Shown one piece after another: positions 14,378 through 25,754 of a DNA stretch of 64,000 bases. The stretch spans positions 1-64,000 of the forward strand of contig JAVCBU010000016.1 in the NCBI GenBank assembly GCA_037917685.1, given 5' to 3'. The position numbers and the translations under genes are program-made. Below the pieces are notes generated by a model. That model saw nothing but the letters and a program-made list of their open reading frames with translations. It had not been told where the DNA came from and did not search any database. The DNA comes from Thermoproteota archaeon (GTDB lineage Archaea > Korarchaeota > Korarchaeia > Korarchaeales > JAOZGB01). Position 1 is the stretch's first letter; each line of letters begins with the position of its first letter.

Positions 14378-16051
14378 ATGGAGTTGGAATTTAACTATGT
14401 AAACTTTCAAATGGGAACTCGTCTTCCGACTGAGCTCTCTGGACACTTATCTTTATTTTTTATCACTTCCGTTATTACTACTGTGAGTAAAACCCTTAAA
14501 AGAAGCATTGCTGGTGGAGCGACCGTCATTCTTGCAGGGAATGTGATAAACATAATGTTTTCAATGCTTGCTGTAAAACTTTTGGTTAGGGGGCTTGGAA
14601 GCTCCGGGTACGGCTTATATTCCAAGATTATATCCCCTATACTCCTTTTACAGCCGTTAATCATAATATTTGGAGAAAGATACTATGCGTTCAGACATCT
14701 TTCGGCGTATATCGCCGGCGAAAACCATTCCGAAGCTTCAAATGTTGCTATGTTCCTTCTCCTTCTAAGGGTAAGCTATGGTTTCCTATTAACCATAATA
14801 GTCTACCTCTGTAGAGATTTTCTCGCTGCATATATAGGACATCCTGAGCTTAAAGGCCTGGTCGGGCTTGCATCCTTGTTGATTTTTCTAAATGGGATTT
14901 ATGAGATAGGTTACTCTTTTTCTATAGTTGAGGAGAGAGAGGAATACGTAGTTGTGAGCTCTGTTGTGTTAAACATCGTTAAGATTTCAGCCCTATTAAT
15001 TTTTCTTTTAACGTCGAATTTAGACCTTTACCAGGCCCTAATCTCTATAATATTAGGGTATGTCTCCAGCGATATAGTTCTTTTATTCCTATCGTCGCTC
15101 AGAGTTAAGCCCAAGCCTATCCACATAGGGGTGTACGCAGGCTATTTTAGGTCTATGCTCTCCTATAGCTTACCAATAGTATTTCATGTTTTAGCATTTA
15201 ACATGTGTCTCGAATTCCCGCTCATGATCTTCGCGCACCTAGGCTCAAATCTTGAGAATGCAGTCCTGAGAGTTTCAAATAGGTATTTTAAGATATTAGG
15301 AACTGTGGGGTCTGCTCTTACCTTGTCGATGATACCTAAAATAAGCGCTGAGGAGTCTCAGGAGGTCAGGCTTTCAGTTATTAGGGAGAGCATTCCGTAT
15401 TTCGGTTACGTCGGCTCATTACTTTCAGCATTTATGATAGGGTTACCTAGAAGTCTTCTAAGCATAATATCAGCTGCCTATATCAACTATTGGACTGTAA
15501 TAGCTATCATGGGGCTTTCAATGATCTTTACAATCTTTATCCCCCTTAGGACTCTCCTGGTAGTTAACTCTGGAAAAAGCCTAATACTTATAGGATTATC
15601 ACAGCTCCTATACACAGTAGCACTCTCATACCTCTTAAGTAGAAGCCTTATTTTAATTTCAGCTGTGTACCCACTGCTCTATGCCTTATACCTTTTATTG
15701 ACCGCTATCCCCCTCAGTAGACATATAAGTCTAGGTTTCATTCTGAAATTCGCTTCTATAAGCCTAGAGGCAGCTTTGATACCTGCCTTAATAGGCCAGG
15801 TAATGGATGTTTTCCTGGTGAAATATCAGTCTTACTTTCCATTCTACAGTCTAATTGTGGTATTTATCCCCTTCCTTGCGCTTCTTATCTTCATAATCCA
15901 TGTAAACGTTTACGTCTGTCTTAAAGGCTTAGCCCCCCAGAAAATAGTCAACATGTACACAGCCGTAAACCTACCTTCGAAGCTTAAAATGATCATTGTG
16001 GAACTGTTAAAAACTATAATAGTCGGTTTTGAAGATACTAAAGACCTCTAA
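14378..16051 (+). CDS. Wzx/RfbX-like oligosaccharide flippase (start probably GTG 14483)
   Basis: RGLGSSGYGLYS first-loop motif, about 14 TM helices, SMLSYSLP. Confidence 0.78.
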   Translation: MELEFNYVNFQMGTRLPTELSGHLSLFFITSVITTVSKTLKRSIAGGATVILAGNVINIMFSMLAVKLLVRGLGSSGYGLYSKIISPILLLQPLIIIFGERYYAFRHLSAYIAGENHSEASNVAMFLLLLRVSYGFLLTIIVYLCRDFLAAYIGHPELKGLVGLASLLIFLNGIYEIGYSFSIVEEREEYVVVSSVVLNIVKISALLIFLLTSNLDLYQALISIILGYVSSDIVLLFLSSLRVKPKPIHIGVYAGYFRSMLSYSLPIVFHVLAFNMCLEFPLMIFAHLGSNLENAVLRVSNRYFKILGTVGSALTLSMIPKISAEESQEVRLSVIRESIPYFGYVGSLLSAFMIGLPRSLLSIISAAYINYWTVIAIMGLSMIFTIFIPLRTLLVVNSGKSLILIGLSQLLYTVALSYLLSRSLILISAVYPLLYALYLLLTAIPLSRHISLGFILKFASISLEAALIPALIGQVMDVFLVKYQSYFPFYSLIVVFIPFLALLIFIIHVNVYVCLKGLAPQKIVNMYTAVNLPSKLKMIIVELLKTIIVGFEDTKDL

Positions 16052-16163: not shown

Positions 16164-16933
16164 ATGCGTGTTGCTGTTATTGGGCTCGATGGCGTTGCCT
16201 GGCATGTTCTTAAGCCTTTAATCGATAGAGGAGCTATGCCGGCTCTTGGTAAGTTAGTAGGAGGATCTTTGAAGGGGTTTTAAGGTCAACCATGCCGCCA
16301 ACACCACCAGCATGGACGAGCATAGCTTCAGGGGTTAACCCTGGTAAACACGGCATTTTCAGCTTCGTAAAGATGAATAAAGAGGGGAAGGCTGGAGTTG
16401 TGATCTCCCTGGATGTGAAAGCGCCTAGAATTCATGAAATGGTTGCTCTTAGAGGTTTAAGGGCTGTCTGCGTGAACCACCCATTAACATATCCGGTGTT
16501 TAAACTCAGAAATCTATATACGATTACAGACTGGCTAGGGCCTGAAATTCAGTTTCACCCTAAAGGAATTGAGAATTATGGGGCGAGATTTAAACCATAT
16601 GAGACCTACAAGTATACCGTTAGGGAAGAGTTCCTTAGAAACCTATATAGAAACTCTCAGAGCAGGTTTAGAGTAATAATTGAAATGATGGAAAATCTTG
16701 ATTGGAATCTCTTTTGGGTGGTTCTCAGCGAGCCAGACCACATCCTCCATAGATGGTATGAGGAAGCTCTTAAGGGCTGCGAAGAAGTAGATCTGATCTT
16801 CAAAAATATGGATGAAGTGATAAAAGCCGCAGTTGAAATTTCAGGCTATGTCGTCATTGCTTCCGACCACGGCTTTTATAGATACAAATACTTAGTATAT
16901 GTATATGGATTCTCTGATACTTTACGTCGATAG
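16164..16933 (+). pseudogene. AlkP-superfamily (type I phosphodiesterase/NPP-like) protein, frameshifted and C-terminally truncated
   Basis: MRVAVIGLDG from ATG 16164; frameshift in aaggggtttt near 16275; then STMPPTPPAWTSIASGVNPGKHGI, DHILH, SDHG and an abrupt stop. Confidence 0.85.
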
Positions 16934-17136: not shown

Positions 17137-18028
17137 TCAAGCAACAATAGACTTAATATGCAGTCCTGCATGGGCATATTCGTATGGTTTGTTAGGGTCT
17201 TTGTATTTATGTAGCGGATGTTTCTTCCAGGGTAAAAGACCTATGTGATGTCTGGTTAATTCCTCCATCATTTGATGGTGGGGAAGAAAGCCTAAAGATA
17301 TTATAGGCATGTTGGTTAGTAATTTATTATCTCCTATTACTGTTAATTTGCCCACTTTATTCTGTTTGAATATTTCGATCAAGCCACTAACGTTTCTATA
17401 AGGTTGTGGACGTGATTGGGAGAGATCATTACCCACGTACACTGAGGATAAATGTTTACTTTCTATTTGACTCACTTTCAGCGTCTCACTTTCTATCAAC
17501 GAAGGAAAGTTTGGAACTACAAAAACGTGGCTGTTGTGCTTTCTATGTTCTTTCGCTACGGTTTCTGTAGTTGTTATAACTGCTGAAGCTTTTTCTAATA
17601 TCTCTTTTTCCCACCTTTCCATTAACCAACTCTTGTAGGTGTGGGAAAGTGTATTGTAAAGTTTCGTCTTTACCTGACTCTTCGAGGAAATAGACCAGTA
17701 CTCATGATCATCATAAATAAAGGGGATATTTGATTCGCAGGCTAGTTTGCCAGCAATGATGTTGTGGGCATGAATCAAATCAGGTTTACACTCTGAAATT
17801 ACTTTTTTAGGCTTTTTTAAGCCGTTTCCAATATGGGGGGATTTTTAGATTTGCTTTTCCATTAAATGGAATAGAATACGTTTTTTCAAAAGTTTTGAGT
17901 GGGAAAGCGAAACTACGTATTTGAGGACCTGCGAAAAAGACGGTATGTCCCTTCTTTTTCGCGGTATGTGCTGCCTTTTCAACCCGTGAATCTGGCAATG
18001 GATCGTGCGAGAGACTTAGAATTCTCAT
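17137..18028 (-). pseudogene. GT4-like glycosyltransferase, frameshifted near 17805 and truncated
   Basis: MRILSLS...DSRVEK, then KPDLIHAH, YDDHEY, PNFP, PNKPYEYAHAGL in the next frame across an A6-GCCT-A6 tract. Confidence 0.85.
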
Positions 18029-18498: not shown

Positions 18499-19695
18499 TC
18501 AGCCATAGTATATGCCGCCTGCTATTATTCTTCCATTCTTCTGGAGTACAAATCTACCAAGTTCGGGAAGTATTGAAACTTTTTCTAAAACCACTGGCTT
18601 CTCAAACTCTAGATAAACGGTACCTATTTCCGCCTGCCTTATTACACCTTTGGATGGTAGCTTTTCCAAGCTTTCAACGTCAACTTTATCCTCTACCCTA
18701 CTAATCCTACATTTTACTTCCTGGGTGGCGCATCTGAACAGGTAGCTTTCACCCTCCTTCACCTCCCCTATAAGGCAGAGCACGGAAGACTTCACATTGT
18801 CGGTAACTACCGGGTTTCCACCTCTTGCTATAACGTCTCCCCTGCCTGGGCTGAACCCTGATAGGATTAACCCGACAGCCTTTGGCCTACAGGCTCTTCC
18901 AAGCCTTCCTTCAAAGGTAACTATGCCTTTTACGGTTGCATTTACCCCTTCAGGGTAAACTGTAACCTCAGATCCCTCTGAGATACATCCGGAAAGGATG
19001 TTTCCTACATAAACCCTTTCTCCCTTTAATATATACTGGTCCTGCACCGGCATCCTGAAATCATACTCTGTTTTTGTAACGTTTAGAGCGTCTAGGGCTT
19101 GGAGTAGGGTTGGACCCCTATACCAGCCCATTCTTGGAGAGGGTATTACCACGTTGTCCCCATTATAGGCTGACACCGGTATAACGTGGGTTGGTGGTAT
19201 GCCTATAGCTTTAAGGTACTTTTCGCATTCCTGAGCTACTCTAACATATTCATCCTTGTCATAGTTTATAAGGTCCATCTTGTTAACCGCAAGGATTACT
19301 TGCTTTATTCCAAGAAGTTTGAGAATGTAGGCGTGTCTCCTGGTTTGCTCCTCAGCTTCACGGGTTACGTCTACGATGAGTATTGCAGCCTCAGCCTGGC
19401 TTGCACCTGTAACCATGTTTTTAAGGAACTCCTTGTGGCCTGGGGCGTCTATAATGGTGTAGCCTCTCTTTCCGCTTTTGAAGAACGTCTGTGTTGTTTC
19501 AATGGTCATCTCCCTCCTTCTTTCCTCCTCGAGAGCGTCTGCGATGTAGGAGAATTCCATTTTATGTCCAAGCATGCTGCAGGTGTTCTCTATCTCCCTT
19601 AGCTTCTCCTCGGGGACGGATCCGGTGTCGTAGAGCAGCCTCCCTATAAGGGTGGACTTCCCATGGTCCACATGGCCTACAATAACAATATTCAT
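18499..19695 (-). CDS. cysN: Sulfate adenylyltransferase GTPase subunit (no APS-kinase fusion)
   Basis: [47 protein letters not shown]; directly downstream of cysD. Confidence 0.9.
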
Positions 19696-19705
19696 GCCTT
19701 ACACC

Positions 19706-20521
19706 CTACATGTAGCCTAGAGCCCTAAGCTTCTGCATCATATATGCTTTCTCCTTATCCTGGGCTCTACCAGCCCTCTCTGGGATCTTCGTGGTCTCTA
19801 TCTCCCTTATGATCTTGTCGATCGTGTCGGCCTCCGAGGCGACGGGTACGCAGCAGGTCTCACATCCTATGCTTCTATACCTGTAGCCTGGCTTCCTTGC
19901 ACCAGAGAAGTATAGTGGAACGACTGGTATCCCTTCCCTCTTAATGTAGCGCCAGATGTCTATCTCCCGCCAGTGGAGCATTGGGTGGATCCTCATATGT
20001 GTCTCAGCATCCTCGACCTGGTTAAACTGCTCCCAGAGCTCGGGGGGCTGGTTAATATAATCCCACTTAAAGTCCTTGTCTCGCCAGGAGAAGTATCTCT
20101 CTTTAGCCCTTATGCCATGCTCATCTCGCCTAATAGCTAGGAGCAGCGCCTTGAAACCATGCTTCTCGATAGCCTGCTTCAACGCTTGTGTTTTAAGGGC
20201 TGTACAACACTCGAATCTCCCCTTGGACGGTCCCATCCCATTTCTAAGGGCTTCCTCATTTCTTGCAATTATCAGCCTCAGCTTCCAATCCTTGGTTAGT
20301 TTGTCCCTGAACTCGTAGATCTCCCTGAACTTGAAAGACGTGTCTATGTGTACCACTGGGATGGGTACTTCCCCGAAAAATGCCTTCCTAACCATGTAAA
20401 GGAGTGTTGTTGAGTCCTTCCCCCATGAGACGAGAACTGCAAGCCTGTCCCGATAGCTATGATAGGCTTCCCTTATGATGTAGATGCTCCTGGCCTCAAG
20501 CTCATCAAGATAATCGTACAC
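19706..20521 (-). CDS. cysD: Sulfate adenylyltransferase subunit 2
   Basis: LDELEARSIYIIREA, SWGKDS PP-loop, RAKERYFS, YRSIGC, ERAGR. Confidence 0.95.
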   Translation of the reverse strand: MYDYLDELEARSIYIIREAYHSYRDRLAVLVSWGKDSTTLLYMVRKAFFGEVPIPVVHIDTSFKFREIYEFRDKLTKDWKLRLIIARNEEALRNGMGPSKGRFECCTALKTQALKQAIEKHGFKALLLAIRRDEHGIRAKERYFSWRDKDFKWDYINQPPELWEQFNQVEDAETHMRIHPMLHWREIDIWRYIKREGIPVVPLYFSGARKPGYRYRSIGCETCCVPVASEADTIDKIIREIETTKIPERAGRAQDKEKAYMMQKLRALGYM

Positions 20522-20529
20522 GAAACCAC

Positions 20530-20551
20530 TGACACTCTAATTGGAGTGTCA
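20530..20551. promoter_or_regulatory. Near-perfect 22-bp palindrome between the TATA box and the cysD start (putative operator)
   Basis: TGACACTC-TAATTG-GAGTGTCA; minus-strand TTTATATTT at 20552-20560. Confidence 0.65.
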
Positions 20552-20739
20552 AAATATAAACCTTTCCATAGTTTTCAGGTCCAGTTAAAATTCTCTCTAA
20601 TAAGTTCACCTTCTCGAGTTCACATATCCCCTCAAGAAAGGAAAGAGTGCACATGGTCTACGATCGCATAGTCGAGGACCAAGATATTTCTCAAATCGTC
20701 AAGAAATGATAATCTTTCCGAAATATGGCTCCAAATCTG

Positions 20740-20958
20740 TTAATCGAAGTATCCAAGCCTCTTGAGCCTTTCCCTAACCTCCTTTATCATATGCTTCTCC
20801 AATGATTCCTCTTCCACCAGCTCACCCCCGGTTACGACCATCCTCATTATGAAGACGATGAATTCTGTGACACTTGAGAACCCCGTGTCTCTGATTGTCT
20901 CTTTAAGCCTAAGATAGAGCTCCCTTGGGATCTTAATCGTTACCTTCTCACCAGCCAA
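20740..20958 (-). CDS. CopG/ribbon-helix-helix protein with C-terminal ERLKRLGYFD
   Basis: KVTIKIPRELY...GFSSVTEFI RHH pattern. Confidence 0.85.
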   Translation of the reverse strand: MAGEKVTIKIPRELYLRLKETIRDTGFSSVTEFIVFIMRMVVTGGELVEEESLEKHMIKEVRERLKRLGYFD

Positions 20959-21032
20959 GGGGACACCAATTTATGGACAGCTAGAGTCCAATAAAAGATT
21001 AACTTAATATTTTTAACAGGCTTCTCAAATGT

Positions 21033-21248
21033 ATGCCTTCAGGAGAAAAAGTGGCTGTGAAACTAAGCAGGGAAATCTACGAGAGGGCTAAAAGATACAT
21101 TGAGAAAGAGGGAGGATTCGACTCTGTAGACGAGTTCGTGGAGTTCGTGGTTGAGCACGTACTTGAAGAGGAGTCCCCCCAGGCAGCGTACACACCTGAA
21201 GAAGAAGAAAAAATAAAAGAGAGGCTGAGAAGTCTAGGATACCTATAG
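21033..21248 (+). CDS. CopG/ribbon-helix-helix protein with C-terminal ERLRSLGYL
   Basis: KVAVKLSREIY...GFDSVDEFV RHH pattern; paralogue of the divergent gene. Confidence 0.87.
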   Translation: MPSGEKVAVKLSREIYERAKRYIEKEGGFDSVDEFVEFVVEHVLEEESPQAAYTPEEEEKIKERLRSLGYL

Positions 21249-21286
21249 TCTCATCTTACAAACACCGAGTTAAGGGAAAGCCTTGG

Positions 21287-22009
21287 GTGTGGGGGTTGCT
21301 CGTAATACTTGGCCTTGACGGATTAGAATACGAGTACGTCCTAGAGTTCAACTGTAAAAACCTCATGCAGGAACATTATGGGAAGACAGATATATCCATG
21401 TTTAAAGAGCCGAGGACAGTTGTAATATGGTCCTCATTCCTAGCGGGCAGAAACCTTGAAAACGAAATACTGAAGCACGAAGACCTCTGGAGCTTCAGGT
21501 TGAAGCCCGAGCAAACCTTCTTCTCCAAGTACAAGAAGTGGGAAGCCATAGACGTCCCAGGCTTCACCCATAAATACGAAGAGCACAAGCAGGAGAGAGA
21601 ACTTCTGAAAGGCTTCTTCGACGGTACGGTCACGGTTCAAGAATACGATGAGGCAGCCTTTAGGCATCATAGGCAAAACAAGCAAGAGTTCAACGAAGCA
21701 CTGCAGCAGGACCTGGAAATACTGATGGGCTACTTCCCCCTAGCAGACACAATTGGACACCTAAGCTTCGGAGTTAAAACGAAGATGAAAATAATCTACA
21801 GGGAGCTTGACAGCATCGCTGGAAAAGTGAGACTGGCAGGGCACAGGCTCCTAATAATATCAGACCACGGTATGAAGCCTGTCGGGAGATTCGGAGACCA
21901 CACAAACTATGGCTACTACTCGACGAATTTCAAAATAGATCTAGGTAAGCCAGGAATAACCCAGTTCAGGAAAATTATAGAAGACTTCACGTATAAAAGT
22001 AGGGAGTGA
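21287..22009 (+). CDS. Compact AlkP-superfamily (NPP/phosphodiesterase-like) enzyme
   Basis: LGLDG, PRTVVIWSSFLAG (Thr nucleophile position), DTIGH, SDHG, GDH. Confidence 0.85.
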   Translation: MWGLLVILGLDGLEYEYVLEFNCKNLMQEHYGKTDISMFKEPRTVVIWSSFLAGRNLENEILKHEDLWSFRLKPEQTFFSKYKKWEAIDVPGFTHKYEEHKQERELLKGFFDGTVTVQEYDEAAFRHHRQNKQEFNEALQQDLEILMGYFPLADTIGHLSFGVKTKMKIIYRELDSIAGKVRLAGHRLLIISDHGMKPVGRFGDHTNYGYYSTNFKIDLGKPGITQFRKIIEDFTYKSRE

Positions 22010-23453: not shown

Positions 23454-25754
23454 ATGATGATCAACCTTTATAAGTGCCAGAATCCTACCTCATTAAGGAT
23501 GCAGATGGTCAAGATACGAACTACTACCCTTATTATAGCCCTTCTACTCCTAGCAGGCAGCATTGTAGGAAGCTTGCATGTGGAATCCTCAACTTCAACC
23601 CCCATGGAGACAGTTACGATCTTCGCTGATGCCGATGCCCTCATAACAGAGGCTGTTCCCGATAATAATTGGGGTGATTATGAGTATTTAAGCGTGGGGG
23701 TAGGAAGCAATAATAAGAAGATTAGGACACTCCTGCACTTTGACTTCAGCGTTATACCGGAGGGTTCAACTATAGTTAGCGCCGAACTTCACCTTACATT
23801 TGCAATGATGTATTTCGGCACAGGAGCAGCAAACATAAAGGTTTATTGGTTAGTAAACGGCGGGTTCGACGAGGACTGCGTAACATGGTATAGGAGGACC
23901 TGTACGGAAAACTGGCCGGATCCCGGGGGAGAGTACAGCTCAGCAGTCCCACCCCTAGATTCAGTTCAAGTGTCAGCGAATAACAATGCATGTGATGATA
24001 TAGTATTCAATATTAAATATTATGTTGATAAAGTGGTTAACCATGGCTGGAGCGGTTTCGGACTCATGCTTACAGCTGATGATGCCAACGACTTTGCAAG
24101 GTTCTACTCGAAGGAAGGTGCCTCTGGAAGCGGCTGCTCCGGCGAGGCAAGGCCAAGAGTTGTAGTAACCTATACACCCCCGGGCTACAGTATAAACCTT
24201 ATTCAGCCATCCGGGGGAGAAGTACTCACTGCAGGCCAAACTTACCAGATTAAATGGCAGTCATCCGCCGCAATCGGAAAAATAGTAATATTATTCTCCC
24301 CAGATGGAGGTGCCACATGGAATGCGGTAGACTGTGTAGACAACACGGGGGGAGTAATGACCTACACATGGCATGTTCCAGAAATAGAGTCAAGCCAATG
24401 CAAGATATGGGTAAGAATGCTATCCAGTTGCAGCGGCCCGGCAGTTCTATACGCTGAAGATCAAAGCGGACTGTTTACAATTACGATCCCCGAAGAAGCC
24501 GACTTCACAATAGACTTATCACCTGATGAGATAAGCGTCCAGGCTGGGGAGCAAGCGTCATTCACCATAACAATCACCCCGACAGGGGGGTTCTCAGCAA
24601 CATTATACTTCTCTGTCTCAGGCCTACCCCTAGACGCCTCCTACAACCTAGTGCCAACAGGCCCCTACACCATAACCCTACTAGTGCAAACCGGAAGCAC
24701 AACAGGAACCTTCACAATAACAGTTACAGCAACGGGAGGCGGGAAAACCCATAGCGACACGGCGACCCTAATAATAAACCCGCCTCCTACGACTACTCCT
24801 CCGCCTACGACTACTCAGCCTCCTACGACTACTCCTCCGCCTACGACTACTCAGCCTCCTACGACTACTCCTCCGCCTACAACCCCTGCACCATCCTTCG
24901 ATTTTACAATTAGTGTCCAGCCATCTACTGTAACAGTTAGCCCCGGTGACACCGTATCATTTGCTGTGACCGTTGAGCTTGTATCTGGAACCGCGGAGTC
25001 CATCTCTCTATCGGTGGCCGGGCTTCCGTCAGAGTTTACCTGGAGCTTTAACCCACCCTCCGTGACGCCAACTGGCGTTTCAACACTAAATATAAATGTT
25101 GGGGACAAGCCGGGCACTTATACCTTTGTTGTCGCGGCTACGGGTGGCGGGGTAACTAGAACAGCAACGGCGACAATCACAGTCGAGGAGGGGAAGAAAT
25201 GTATTATTGCAACCGTCACCTATGGCGGTGAACTTTCTGACGAGGTACAACTGTTGAGAGGTTATAGAGACAGATTTATAATGAAAAGCTTCCTTGGAAA
25301 GAGCTTCATGTACGCATTTAACAAATTCTACTACTCATGGAGCCCAGCGGTGGCATCGAGGATAGATGGAAACGAGATTCTCAAAGGCTACGTGAGGGTA
25401 TCGCTGTATCCATTAATATACATTCTTCAGGCTACGAACTGGCTGACCCTACATATGGTAGGCATAAGCCTTGAAGCTGCTGTTTTAGTGGCAGGGATGC
25501 TGGCCTCAGCCCTAATAGGAATAGTGTACTTGGCCCCAACAATATACCTAATAGGGACGATATGGAATCTGAGACCGTCAAAGAAAACGATTCTAATCAT
25601 AGCCTCCAATGTAGCCCTATGGACTGCTATAAGCCTATTCTCAATCCTTACATGTGCCAATGGCATTGCAGTAATATCTACGTCCCTTCTCGTGCTATCA
25701 ACGATTGTTCTTAGCTCAACAGCAGTCGCAAAAGCAACTATGAAAGTTCTCTAA
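23454..25754 (+). CDS. Secreted surface protein: DNRLRE-like domain, Ig-like domains, Pro/Thr linker and CFI-box-type C-terminal domain (start probably 23499-23505)
   Basis: Signal peptide; ADADALI...NNWG...RTLLHFDFS...IVSAELHL; KKCIIATVTYG...VQLLRGYRD...FYYSWSP; 3 C-terminal TM helices. Confidence 0.85.
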   Translation: MMINLYKCQNPTSLRMQMVKIRTTTLIIALLLLAGSIVGSLHVESSTSTPMETVTIFADADALITEAVPDNNWGDYEYLSVGVGSNNKKIRTLLHFDFSVIPEGSTIVSAELHLTFAMMYFGTGAANIKVYWLVNGGFDEDCVTWYRRTCTENWPDPGGEYSSAVPPLDSVQVSANNNACDDIVFNIKYYVDKVVNHGWSGFGLMLTADDANDFARFYSKEGASGSGCSGEARPRVVVTYTPPGYSINLIQPSGGEVLTAGQTYQIKWQSSAAIGKIVILFSPDGGATWNAVDCVDNTGGVMTYTWHVPEIESSQCKIWVRMLSSCSGPAVLYAEDQSGLFTITIPEEADFTIDLSPDEISVQAGEQASFTITITPTGGFSATLYFSVSGLPLDASYNLVPTGPYTITLLVQTGSTTGTFTITVTATGGGKTHSDTATLIINPPPTTTPPPTTTQPPTTTPPPTTTQPPTTTPPPTTPAPSFDFTISVQPSTVTVSPGDTVSFAVTVELVSGTAESISLSVAGLPSEFTWSFNPPSVTPTGVSTLNINVGDKPGTYTFVVAATGGGVTRTATATITVEEGKKCIIATVTYGGELSDEVQLLRGYRDRFIMKSFLGKSFMYAFNKFYYSWSPAVASRIDGNEILKGYVRVSLYPLIYILQATNWLTLHMVGISLEAAVLVAGMLASALIGIVYLAPTIYLIGTIWNLRPSKKTILIIASNVALWTAISLFSILTCANGIAVISTSLLVLSTIVLSSTAVAKATMKVL
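24780..24887 (+). repeat. Six 18-bp tandem units (PPPTTT/QPPTTT) with a 36-bp higher-order period
   Basis: ccgcctcctacgactact / cctccgcctacgactact / cagcctcctacgactact... Confidence 0.95.

Follow-up and report, generated by a model that had tools for sequence, protein, structure and literature searches.

Why should three neighbouring genes, coding for proteins of two unrelated folds, share one and the same ending? This question is raised by a stretch of 64,000 nucleotides from a korarchaeal genome, referred to here as the window. The initial annotation had described like endings on CysD, the catalytic subunit of sulfate adenylyltransferase, and on two small CopG/RHH-like regulators, RHH-1 and RHH-2, and these were indeed found as KLRALGYM, RLKRLGYFD, and RLRSLGYL, respectively. 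The CysD tail, YMMQKLRALGYM (19709..19744, minus strand), is native to its family and tag-like, with L at positions -4 and -1, and the RHH-1 tail, VRERLKRLGYFD, lies at 20743..20778 on the same strand. RHH-2, whose C-terminal end is KIKERLRSLGYL, carries the tail module YTPEEEEKIKERLRSLGYL in residues 53-71 (21189..21245, plus strand). An acidic spacer had been described ahead of both RHH tails; it stands out in RHH-2 (EEESPQAAYTPEEEE) and is less marked in RHH-1 (GGELVEEESLEKH).

The shared ending at this locus exceeds chance. A search of the whole 1.81 Mb genome for [RK]L[RK]xLGY picks out just 4 of 8877 ORFs (minimum length 40 aa); in all 4 the pattern lies at the extreme C-terminus, and 3 of the 4 belong to this locus. 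When ORFs were scored with an HMM of the tail derived from 58 relatives, RHH-2 (50 bits), RHH-1 (11.4 bits), a protein from contig C9, and CysD took ranks 1, 2, 3, and 5 among 4835 ORFs. The motif L..LGY is also a common helix-end motif, and weak sub-threshold Pfam echoes of the first helix of PG_binding_2 were seen.

The genes of the locus form 2 divergent groups. On the minus strand, RHH-1 (20740..20958, 72 aa) lies upstream of and co-oriented with CysD (19706..20521, 271 aa), and CysN, the GTPase subunit of sulfate adenylyltransferase (18499..19695; Pfam GTP_EFTU and NCBIfam CysN/EF-1alpha models), follows 10 nt downstream of CysD on the same strand. CysN comprises 398 aa and bears neither an APS-kinase domain nor the tail. 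CysD is a clear member of the CysD/PAPS-reductase fold represented by 1ZUN and 2OQ2: it matches PAPS_reduct (PF01507, 6.3e-42) and NF003587 (320.7 bits versus a cut-off of 195), falls below the cut-off of TIGR02039 (242.7 versus 396.6), and aligns structurally with 1zun_A (Z 24.5, rmsd 1.8 over 193 residues). On the plus strand, RHH-2 (21033..21248, 71 aa, type A, 33 homologues) is followed by a short enzyme of the AlkP/NPP family (21287..22009, 240 aa), for which the match to Phosphodiest (PF01663) is marginal at 23.8 bits versus a cut-off of 23. The ORF coordinates agree with the earlier description of this enzyme as compact, tailless, and co-oriented with RHH-2, starting 38 nt past its end. 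A frameshifted and truncated remnant of a long AlkP/NPP gene was additionally recognized at 16167..16933 (plus strand); 2 tblastn pieces in different frames correspond to residues 3-32 and 39-254 of a 511-aa relative, and against the A3 profile the remnant gives a match at 3e-42 across positions 37-272. Neither Sat nor APS kinase was found in the genome, which is 95% complete; CysD-CysN stands in for Sat at this locus. Likewise, the locus lacks a DHH gene, and only weak DHH matches occur elsewhere in the genome.

The assignment of the 2 small proteins as RHH regulators draws on several lines of evidence. RHH-1 aligns with the RHH-2 family (A1 profile match, 1.4e-22) and scores 18.3 bits against RHH_1, below the cut-off of 20.5; RHH-2 has no Pfam match, and 2 of its 33 homologues are named CopG family transcriptional regulator by NCBI. 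In a fused relative, P0178, the N-terminal copy reaches RHH_1 at 27.5 bits. The alignment reveals an RHH core of KVxVxIS, helix A, G-x-F-x-S-V, and helix B, i.e., a strand-helix-helix arrangement with a G-x-S/T turn. The AF2 monomer of RHH-2 has helices at residues 13-26 and 32-46, a disordered segment at 47-54, and a tail helix at 55-68, with the strand unformed in the monomer. A reading as a type II toxin-antitoxin system with an RHH antitoxin was rejected, as no toxin gene is adjacent and the neighbours are CysD, CysN, and AlkP; in 59 related loci, the Pfam-matched ORFs flanking the RHH genes code for enzymes or transporters. Candidate operators were also found. In 1.05 Mb of loci, 20 copies of the 16-bp palindrome TAATTA-N4-TAATTA were counted, compared with 0-2 in 20 block shuffles, and 18 of the 20 copies precede a type-B RHH gene with a tail by no more than approximately 130 nt, a placement that would fit DNA-binding autoregulators. 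Allowing up to 2 mismatches, this palindrome is absent from the window, including the 74 bp that separate the divergent genes of RHH-1 and RHH-2 (20959..21032) and are presumed to hold promoters and operators. The window does contain a 22-bp palindrome, TGACACTCTAA/TTGGAGTGTCA (20530..20551; inverted repeat I1, 91% complementary), which lies 9 nt upstream of the CysD start and is a candidate operator. A scan for sigma-70 promoters and terminators was set aside as meaningless for an archaeon.

Within the regulators, the tail is the most conserved part and is conserved above the RHH domain. The module spans about 19 residues, Y-[TS]-P-EEEE-x-IK-x-RL-[RK]-x-LGY-[LI], and is read as an amphipathic helix with an acidic N-half and a basic C-half, in which an acidic N-cap precedes a hydrophobic stripe of I(-8)/L(-4)/L(-1) that leads into G-Y-hydrophobic. 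In the alignment of 34 sequences of the RHH-2 family, R64, L65, L68, G69, and Y70 are invariant. The Tyr, whose conservation had been singled out for checking, is present in 58 of 58 tails and in each of the 115 CysD ends for which an alignment on GY was possible. The motif is firmly tied to the protein end: G-Y is followed by 1 to 3 residues in sampled tails, GY lies within the last 6 residues in 146 of the best 150 matches of a tail-only profile, and a stop codon follows within 5 codons in 112 of 121 matches of a DNA-pattern scan.

In a search of 1.84 billion proteins, the carriers recovered by the tail-only profile were small RHH proteins, APS kinases, and AlkP/NPP-family enzymes only. Among its 21 matches of at least 100 aa, 7 belong to Phosphodiest/Sulfatase and 2 more are AlkP-like by sequence, without a Pfam match; 5 are APS kinases and a further 2 (P0248 and P0268) are CysC-like by sequence, without an APS-kinase match; P0178 matches RHH_1, and P0174, P0177, and P0288 are RHH-like by eye, without an RHH match; 1 is false. 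The stop-terminated matches of the DNA-pattern scan comprise 89 small RHH-like proteins, 11 AlkP, 6 CysC, and 6 others, 4 of which are RHH-like by eye. Both searches thus bear out the idea of a portable module, and, in line with the initial annotation, some AlkP/sulfatase-family proteins do end in this motif. A word-index search for longer proteins with the RHH-2 tail gave 10 candidates, none of them scored, and was of no help, since exact words of 5 residues vary from one tail variant to the next. The tail-bearing regulators are CopG/RHH proteins of at least 4 RHH subfamilies that head sulfate-activation clusters, with 2 tail-bearing paralogues encoded in many loci. In some lineages the tail is fused to APS kinase or to AlkP/NPP-family enzymes, and in some bacterial loci CysC is its sole carrier.

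For CysD, the view of the tail as an acquired tag did not hold up: among its best 120 homologues, 115 end in ...YMMQKLR[SA]LGYM, an ending that is native to a large CysD clade and invariant in it. In this respect, the protein resembles CysD of Pseudomonas syringae, where the native family C-terminus also ends in GY[FM]; in contrast, canonical CysD proteins have K and Q (P. syringae) or S/A/D/K at -1, where the clade of the window has L-4 and L-1. This difference follows the gene content of the loci. CysD tails with L-4/L-1 have AlkP in 57 of 67 loci and CysC in none of the 67, whereas those without L-1 have AlkP in none of 10 loci and CysC or a CysN-CysC fusion in all 10. The tag-like CysD end is confined to CysD clades whose genes lie with AlkP and not with CysC.

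The nativeness and invariance of the CysD ending within its clade raise the prospect that no shared partner exists, and that CysD and RHH proteins converged on a helix-capping motif, L..LGY-hydrophobic, each for the benefit of its own fold. This would be in line with the PG_binding_2 echoes and with untagged APS kinases, whose native ends frequently read ..L...GY[LI]. However, the CysD and RHH consensus sequences agree at 8 consecutive positions, the motif is nearly absent from the rest of the genome, and a near-identical module with an acidic cap is found on 3 unrelated folds that all belong to one pathway; moreover, the tail is conserved above the RHH domain and follows a disordered linker. 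We consider convergence improbable; in the explanation that we favour, the shared ending is a conserved amphipathic C-terminal helix belonging to sulfate-activation clusters.

The tie to such clusters, for which enrichment near sulfate-activation genes had been suggested as a check, is strong in both archaea and bacteria, as judged from locus counts and the pattern scan. Sat, CysC, CysD, or CysN is encoded within 4 kb in 39 of 59 RHH-tail loci. In the class to which the window belongs (40 genomes), the RHH protein is present in 18 of 19 genomes with Sat, CysC, or CysD compared to 3 of 21 without, and AlkP is present in 19 of the 21 genomes with RHH, both exceptions being less than 90% complete. 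Approached from the enzymes, 63 of 80 loci picked by AlkP alone contain a tail-bearing ORF, and 80 CysD loci contain small tail ORFs in 34 cases, AlkP in 61, and TauE permeases in 19. Most RHH-tail loci encode the long form of AlkP. The link between tail and AlkP is not obligate in the searched genomes: of 5 genomes with an AlkP-less RHH locus, 2 lack AlkP anywhere, and in a sample of 41 Nitrososphaeraceae genomes, the sole RHH-tail genome has no AlkP match and 2 genomes have AlkP without a type-A RHH.

These loci also bear on the proposal that the RHH tails copy a mobile C-terminus of CysD and bind CysN or the CysD active site. In PAPS reductases, a mobile C-terminal segment closes on the active site. 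The corresponding part of the CysD of the window (residues 251-271) has low AF2 confidence (pLDDT 65/59/40), the region matching its tail is absent from 1zun_A, in which 204 of 325 residues are modelled, and the yeast PAPS reductase 2oq2_A aligns as far as model residue 268; together with the near-identity of the tails over 8 positions, all this would suit mimicry. Nevertheless, a CysD mimic that senses CysN, as envisaged in the initial annotation, is unlikely because the same tail consensus is found at Sat-type loci without CysD and CysN, and CysD was found in a single genome among the 40 of the class, compared to 21 with an RHH tail. Mimicry of CysD as a whole thus appears still less probable than convergence. 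Since the tail consensus is identical in Sat-type and CysDN-type loci, its receptor must be common to both, and AlkP is.

Our preferred reading, to which we would give an even chance of being right, is that the tail docks as a helix on the AlkP enzyme, so that regulation would be coupled to the enzyme. The short AlkP falls in an archaeal Phosphodiest cluster of the protein atlas, and all 28 sequences of the short form share D11, T/S44, D154, H158, D193, H194, and H205; by their order relative to the NPP ligands, which is canonical, we take these to be the bimetal ligands and the Thr/Ser nucleophile. Searches of NCBIfam and PDB sequences with the AlkP and RHH families gave no informative match. 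In complex predictions of the short AlkP with RHH-2 residues 38-71, ipSAE, a measure of model confidence obtained here for the short AlkP only and for a kind of helix, amphipathic, that docks easily, reached 0.88, 0.88, and 0.90, compared with 0.14 for the best of 3 controls. The ipSAE mark was reached by 116 of 157 solved complexes versus 2 of 215 mismatched pairs, counts that calibrate the prediction only roughly because own alignments were used. Contact agreement between the runs was at least 62% and partner pLDDT at least 72, and recall of a known complex is unlikely because neither chain has a solved sequence relative. The model thus lends support to a docking helix supplied in trans to the tailless enzyme, as had been suggested earlier.

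In the predicted complex, the RHH-2 tail docks on the catalytic face of the adjacent short AlkP. RHH-2 residues 51-54, 57-58, 60-62, 64-65, and 67-71 are in contact with AlkP residues 41-44, 67-68, 104, 107-108, 111, 158, 162-163, and 199-205, an interface that is more conserved than the protein overall (0.81 versus 0.61). Prominent contacts are predicted between I61, L65, L68, Y70, and R64 of RHH-2 and H158, D204/H205, R43/T44, R104, L107, and F111 of AlkP, with Y70 touching H158, L107, and R104 next to the metal site. In the long AlkP, the motif L...GY[LM] is found with its G exactly 17 residues past SDHG in 49 of 76 sequences, compared to 0 of 28 for the short AlkP. The enzyme's own helix may fill the tail site in the long form, and in the short form the tail may replace that helix, which bears the same signature ([IV]N-x-WL-xxx-GYL).

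The predicted position of Y70 beside the metal site would also accommodate a chemical role, in which the Tyr is phosphorylated, sulfated, or adenylylated by AlkP or by a pathway intermediate and serves as a flux-sensing switch or a carrier. AlkP-superfamily enzymes act via covalent Thr/Ser intermediates, and through such a Thr intermediate an invariant Tyr on a flexible tether could accept phosphoryl from PPi or, from APS, either sulfuryl or adenylyl. If this were true, the covalent marking of RHH regulators, CysD, and CysC would scale with sulfate-activation flux, a pathway-private post-translational feedback with an alkaline-phosphatase-fold transferase as the writer and the mark on a shared C-terminal tag. 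However, the neighbours of the Tyr are basic or hydrophobic rather than acidic, and a characterised family member is cited as a plain pyrophosphatase in PMC4463584; we give a covalent role of the Tyr a very slim chance. This protein, the NPP homologue TON_1705 of the published Thermococcus onnurineus cluster, is cited as a pyrophosphatase in both PMC4463584 and PMC8268124, and the AlkP partner is probably not a sulfate-transferring enzyme, contrary to what had been proposed; judged by family, the short AlkP is probably a pyrophosphatase.

Two further roles can be weighed against the docking model. As a short, cationic, amphipathic helix at the extreme C-terminus, the tail might target membranes in the manner of the MinD C-terminus, placing regulators and enzymes near sulfate or TauE transporters and glycan machinery, and TauE permeases do occur in some of the CysD loci counted above. 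However, the sequence identity is much stricter than membrane helices require, the neighbouring poly-Glu would repel anionic lipids, and the predicted docking on AlkP is specific, so that we regard membrane targeting as very improbable. Self-association, for which the C-terminal tetramerisation helix of the P22 Mnt repressor is a model, is unlikely as well, yet deserves more weight than the readings discussed above as alternatives to docking. The tail would then join RHH dimers on tandem operators and, on enzymes, zip these to each other or to the regulator via tail-tail contacts. The self-complementary charge pattern and the many loci with two tail-bearing RHH paralogues would fit, and RHH tails in genomes where AlkP was not found would be explained. 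Nonetheless, self-association leaves unexplained both the invariant G-Y and the confinement to sulfate-activation proteins, fits poorly with bacterial loci in which CysC is the sole carrier, and is disfavoured by an AlkP docking prediction that beat its controls.

Returning to docking on AlkP, the helix would bind through its invariant hydrophobic stripe and Tyr to the catalytic face of the AlkP/NPP enzyme (for the window, the RHH-2 tail to the short AlkP) and would thereby make the regulator responsive to how much enzyme is present or to how far it is occupied, much as RHH antitoxins are held by their toxin or CysE-like tails sit in CysK. Pyrophosphate or sulfate-activation flux could then feed back on transcription, and the same handle on CysD or CysC could tether the PPi- and APS-handling enzymes together. 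This regulatory logic is one that we purely infer. In thermodynamic terms, the activation of sulfate is an uphill process that is drawn forward as PPi is removed and APS is consumed.

Known systems offer partial parallels. The tails of RelB/ParD-type antitoxins wrap the toxin, and the regulators described here share with RHH antitoxins and Mnt an N-terminal RHH domain, a flexible linker, a C-terminal helix with a partner-binding or oligomerising role (predicted in our case), and a gene that heads its own operon; unlike in those systems, the neighbours are metabolic enzymes instead of a toxin, and these enzymes can themselves carry the tail as a fusion. Another comparison is offered by the cysteine synthase complex, to which the CymR-CysK repressor complex of Bacillus can be added. 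In the cysteine synthase complex, the C-terminal tail of CysE, with an essential terminal carboxylate on its last Ile, enters the CysK active site and is copied by the CdiA-CT toxin (as described in the available part of PMC6829319). Common to both cases are sulfur metabolism, a flexible C-terminal peptide on an enzyme active site, unrelated look-alike carriers, and a regulatory read-out via the enzyme, with the docking predicted and the read-out presumed in our case. In contrast to CysE-CysK, our model has a 4-turn helix, G-Y is followed by 1 to 3 residues in the sampled tails, and the receptor would be an AlkP-fold metalloenzyme instead of a PLP enzyme.

The gene cluster as such is already published: PMC8268124 and PMC4463584 report a copG-sat-pApase(DHH)-NPP-cysC arrangement in Pyrococcus yayanosii (PYCH_17520-17560) and in Thermococcus onnurineus (TON_1704-1707). 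The same gene order was seen in most of the loci L141-L220, and no Thermococcus or Pyrococcus loci were among the 80 loci kept from the AlkP-profile contig scan. The published cluster and the window have in common a small copG/RHH gene in the leading position, an enzyme that adenylylates sulfate, an NPP/AlkP enzyme taken to remove PPi, and TauE and glycan genes nearby. They differ in that the window has CysD-CysN for Sat, a 240-aa short AlkP, and 2 divergent RHH genes, whereas APS kinase is missing from its 95%-complete genome and a DHH gene from its locus. Searches of the literature gave no account of the tail: the available parts of PMC8268124 and PMC4463584 are silent on it, with nothing on the regulator beyond the "putative copG transcription factor" of PMC8268124, and PMC5770160, PMC6286981, and PMC10322725 contain no relevant statement on the CysD tail or AlkP. 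A plant sulfite reductase with an RHH-like C-terminus (PMC4898807) is unrelated.

The finding bears on how enzymes are coordinated in prokaryotes without fused PAPS synthases and on how the archaeal cluster is regulated. One conserved peptide on regulators, CysD, CysC, and AlkP enzymes, in archaea and many bacterial phyla, is a concrete and cheap handle on both, and TAATTA-N4-TAATTA is a candidate operator for the copG gene of the published cluster. Furthermore, CysDN is widely encoded with an AlkP enzyme instead of an APS kinase, including in DPANN archaea and Omnitrophota, which raises the question of how APS is used in these organisms.

The products of three genes in the window end alike: CysD (19706-20521, minus strand) in YMMQKLRALGYM, and two small CopG/RHH-like regulators, RHH-1 (20740-20958, minus strand) and RHH-2 (21033-21248, plus strand), in VRERLKRLGYFD and KIKERLRSLGYL. 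The shared ending, as reported in the initial annotation, is real, and sequence inspection likewise bore out its description of an AlkP/Phosphodiest-like ORF of 240 aa (hereafter short AlkP) that starts 38 nt past RHH-2 and carries no such ending. Family scans confirmed the identities of CysD and CysN, gave a marginal Phosphodiest match for the AlkP ORF, scored RHH-1 slightly under the RHH_1 cut-off, and returned no family match for RHH-2. The window corresponds to contig C18 of a 1.81 Mb archaeal genome in 22 contigs, in which 4 of the 8877 ORFs of 40 aa or more contain [RK]L[RK]xLGY, each time at the extreme C-terminus and 3 times in the CysD/RHH locus. The fourth ORF (contig C9:2089-2517, minus strand; L140) encodes a protein of 142 aa with a CPNC/C-x-P zinc-ribbon-like motif and the end RRRLRELGYLEM, for which no Pfam family was found; it precedes a weak GT4-like gene by 24 nt, near the contig end.

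When RHH-2 is aligned with its 33 homologues (64-79 aa), conservation is highest in the tail TPEEEEKIKERLRSLGY[LI], where R64, L65, L68, G69, and Y70 are invariant. Scanning species-representative genomes yielded 59 RHH-tail loci from many archaeal phyla as well as from Aminicenantes, Acidobacteriota, Poribacteria, Verrucomicrobiota, and Nitrospiraceae, all of which end in ...EEEEEIKxRL+xLGY[LI], except for one with LDY. Counting the Gly of GY as position 0, residues E-13, I-8, L-4, G0, and Y+1 are invariant across 58 aligned tails, including the tyrosine whose conservation had been anticipated in the initial annotation. The AF2 model of RHH-2 has helices at residues 13-26 and 32-46, disorder at 47-54, and a tail helix at 55-68.

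Carriers of the tail were searched for independently of the N-terminal domain with a tail-only profile, a degenerate DNA pattern, and a tail HMM inside fetched loci. The profile (30 columns), run against 1.84 billion representative proteins, gave 465 matches with E <= 0.001; among the best 150 of these 465, GY lies inside the last six residues in 146, and 129 are shorter than 100 aa. The 21 proteins of at least 100 aa among these best 150 were checked against Pfam: 7 are Phosphodiest/Sulfatase proteins, with 2 more being AlkP-like in sequence without a Pfam match; 5 are APS kinases, with 2 more being CysC-like in sequence without an APS-kinase match; and P0178 matches RHH_1, with 3 more being RHH-like by eye without an RHH match. 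One protein is a false, internal match. The DNA pattern, a degenerate encoding of EEIKx[R]L[RK]xLGY, gave at least 121 matches; among those listed, a stop comes no more than five codons later in 112, made up of 89 small RHH-like ORFs, 11 ends of AlkP-family proteins, 6 ends of APS kinases, and another 6 of which 4 are RHH-like by eye; the 9 non-terminal matches belong to unrelated proteins. In many fetched loci, the tail HMM detected an additional small RHH paralogue, the second or third of its locus.

By sequence, four types of RHH tail carrier can be distinguished. Type A, which includes RHH-2, has a KVxVxIS strand and a long acidic linker; type B has a [YF]T[TS][VI]SIP strand and is encoded directly upstream of Sat or CysD, RHH-1 being a diverged relative; type C is short, with a YVNIPIP strand; and a fourth, bacterial type with a KVKLDKDL strand is common in Acidobacteriota. 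The tail-bearing consensus of the latter, MFGSxKVKLDKDL...AGYSSxEEFITHALEKEL...SEEEIKKRLxGLGYIS, was found in L224-L340 (loci with 300-nt flanks), many of them from Acidobacteriota, Thermoanaerobaculia, and Vicinamibacteria. Unbiased searches upheld the proposal that the tail is a portable, sulfation-linked module. As counter-evidence, an L..LGY-hydrophobic sequence is also a common helix end, which untagged APS kinases have as well, and echoes of PG_binding_2 were seen below threshold.

The flanks of the 59 RHH-tail loci encode ATP sulfurylase, APS kinase, Phosphodiest/Sulfatase, TauE, DHH, CysN, and glycan genes according to Pfam, and phmmer placed Sat, CysC, CysD, or CysN within 4 kb in 39 of the 59, many contigs being short. 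Among 80 loci picked solely by a profile of long AlkP, the longer relatives of short AlkP, 63 contain a tail-bearing ORF, the usual order being RHH-tail, Sat, (DHH), AlkP, CysC. A further 80 loci, picked solely by CysD, contain AlkP in 61, small tail ORFs in 34, and CysC in 2 cases; their order is RHH-tail(s), CysD, short AlkP (230-240 aa), CysN, and often then TauE in archaea, and CysD, CysN, and then one or two long AlkP genes in Omnitrophota and Brocadiia, where some long AlkP proteins end in E+LRSLGY... Counting against a fixed link to AlkP, five genomes whose RHH locus is without AlkP include 3 with a strong AlkP elsewhere and 2 where none was found. Likewise, among 41 Nitrososphaeraceae genomes, AlkP was absent from the only one with an RHH tail, and type-A RHH from the two that have AlkP.

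Within the window's class (40 genomes), the RHH tail and long AlkP are each found in 21 genomes (19 common to both), Sat in 16, and CysC in 17. The tail is present in 18 of 19 genomes with Sat, CysC, or CysD versus 3 of 21 without, counts that are descriptive because related genomes are not independent; the latter 3 genomes are all at most 78% complete. CysD and short AlkP were each found only in the window's genome, relatives using Sat, long AlkP, and CysC, and therefore the CysDN-AlkP module of the window (18499-22009) looks laterally acquired. APS kinase was not found in this 95%-complete genome. CysD-CysN with an AlkP-family gene, often with TauE, and without APS kinase is widespread (L060-L132), the hosts being DPANN archaea, Omnitrophota, Brocadiia, Dependentiae, and one Giovannonibacteria MAG; no paper on this arrangement was found in the literature searched.

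The surroundings of the locus suggest a glycan-modification island. What remains of a long AlkP/NPP gene (16167-16933, plus strand) has the N-terminal 30 residues, including GLDG, in one frame and the counterpart of residues 39-254 of a 511-aa relative in another, the rest being absent; a pseudogene or an assembly error may explain this. Between a Polysacc_synt flippase gene (14378-16051) and CysN, a GT4 glycosyltransferase is seemingly split into minus-strand ORFs of 213 and 73 aa (17137-17778 and 17807-18028) and is probably broken. A large CBM96/disaggregatase-repeat surface protein is encoded at 23454-25754.

The ending of CysD is native to this protein. CysD of P. syringae (1ZUN_A) ends in ...SMEEKKRQGY(F), and among the 120 homologues closest to the window CysD, 115 end in ...QDKEKxYMMQKLR[SA]LGYM. 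The AF2 model of the window CysD has a high-confidence core, with only 65/59/40 for residues 251-271, and the C-terminal region is unseen in the only solved CysD, because of the 325 residues in the 1ZUN chain only 204 (4-211) are modelled. A tag-like ending, defined by Leu at -4 and -1, correlates with gene context. The end is visible in 77 CysD loci (3 others, where it was not seen, were dropped). Of these 77, 67 are tag-like, and AlkP accompanies 57 of them, an RHH tail 33, and CysC none; the 10 without Leu at -1 have neither AlkP nor RHH, and all 10 have CysC or a CysN-CysC fusion, a split that is partly phylogenetic because these 10 belong mostly to one alphaproteobacterial group.

The tail consensus is identical in Sat-type and CysDN-type loci, and Sat and CysD have unrelated folds; therefore, a common receptor should be present in both operon types, a role that the AlkP core fits. 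A complex prediction for short AlkP and RHH-2 residues 38-71 (alignments of 28 and 33 rows, respectively), a check proposed in the initial annotation, gave scores of 0.88, 0.88, and 0.90 versus 0.14 for the best of three controls, a model result that supports binding of the RHH-2 tail to short AlkP without demonstrating it. Among solved complexes, 116 of 157 reach the score mark, as do 2 of 215 mismatched pairs, counts that hold only roughly because our own alignments were used. At least 62% of contacts are shared between the runs, and the partner pLDDT is 72 or higher. Residues I61, L65, L68, Y70, and R64 of the tail are predicted to contact H158, D204/H205, R43/T44, R104, L107, K108, F111, and 199-203 of AlkP, which places the predicted interface on the bimetal catalytic face. 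All 28 short AlkP sequences conserve D11, T/S44, D154, H158, D193, H194, and H205, and mean conservation is 0.81 for interface residues versus 0.61 overall. No solved sequence relative was found for either chain. The predicted pose agrees with a tail-like segment of long AlkP that short AlkP lacks: F-C-[IV]-N-x-W-L-xxx-G-Y-L, with its Gly exactly 17 residues past SDHG, is found in 49 of 76 long AlkP sequences (L141-L220), its -8/-4/0/+1/+2 signature being identical to that of the tail; the whole post-SDHG insertion is present in 0 of 28 short AlkP sequences (alignment A4), and the tail is predicted to lie beside residues 199-205, just past SDHG.

The exact palindrome TAATTA-N4-TAATTA (16 bp) occurs 20 times in 139 loci (1.05 Mb) versus 0-2 times in 20 shuffles keeping local composition. 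Eighteen of the sites precede, by up to about 130 nt, a type-B tail-bearing RHH gene heading Sat or CysD, and the remaining 2 lie upstream of CysD in L079. Conserved across several archaeal phyla (L006, L016, L021, L026, L031, L037, L039, L046, L057, L058, L067, L079, L095, L100, L106, L110, L111, and L122), the palindrome is a candidate operator for the regulator published as "copG". The window contains no such site, and the strand of its RHH-1 differs. For RHH-1 and RHH-2 themselves, a candidate operator is a near-perfect 22-bp palindrome, TGACACTCTAA/TTGGAGTGTCA (20530-20551), which precedes the CysD start codon by 9 nt.

The gene cluster itself is already known. The order copG-sat-pApase(DHH)-NPP-cysC is described in P. 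yayanosii and other archaea (PMC8268124, section 2.1), and TON_1704, TON_1705, TON_1706, and TON_1707 are listed as APS kinase, pyrophosphatase, PAP phosphatase, and ATP sulfurylase, respectively (PMC4463584, section 2.6.4, citing Lee et al. 2009); going by these sections, the cluster and the likely pyrophosphatase role of AlkP were therefore known. According to the same citation for TON_1705, a putative family member, a pyrophosphatase is likelier than the sulfate-transferring enzyme, or sulfotransferase, envisaged in the initial annotation. The copG-cluster passages of these two papers make no mention of the C-terminal tail, and no description of it was found in the literature searched; what appears to be new is the tail, with its distribution and predicted landing site, and the candidate operator.

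Of the roles initially proposed, a sulfate-carrying tyrosine and CysN sensing by tail-bearing RHH proteins gained no support. Docking of the tail as a helix on the AlkP/NPP pyrophosphatase is the most likely mechanism, with about an even chance of being correct. The docking helix would couple CopG-type regulators to this pyrophosphatase, following a regulatory logic that we infer, and in some lineages the same helix may couple CysD or CysC to it.
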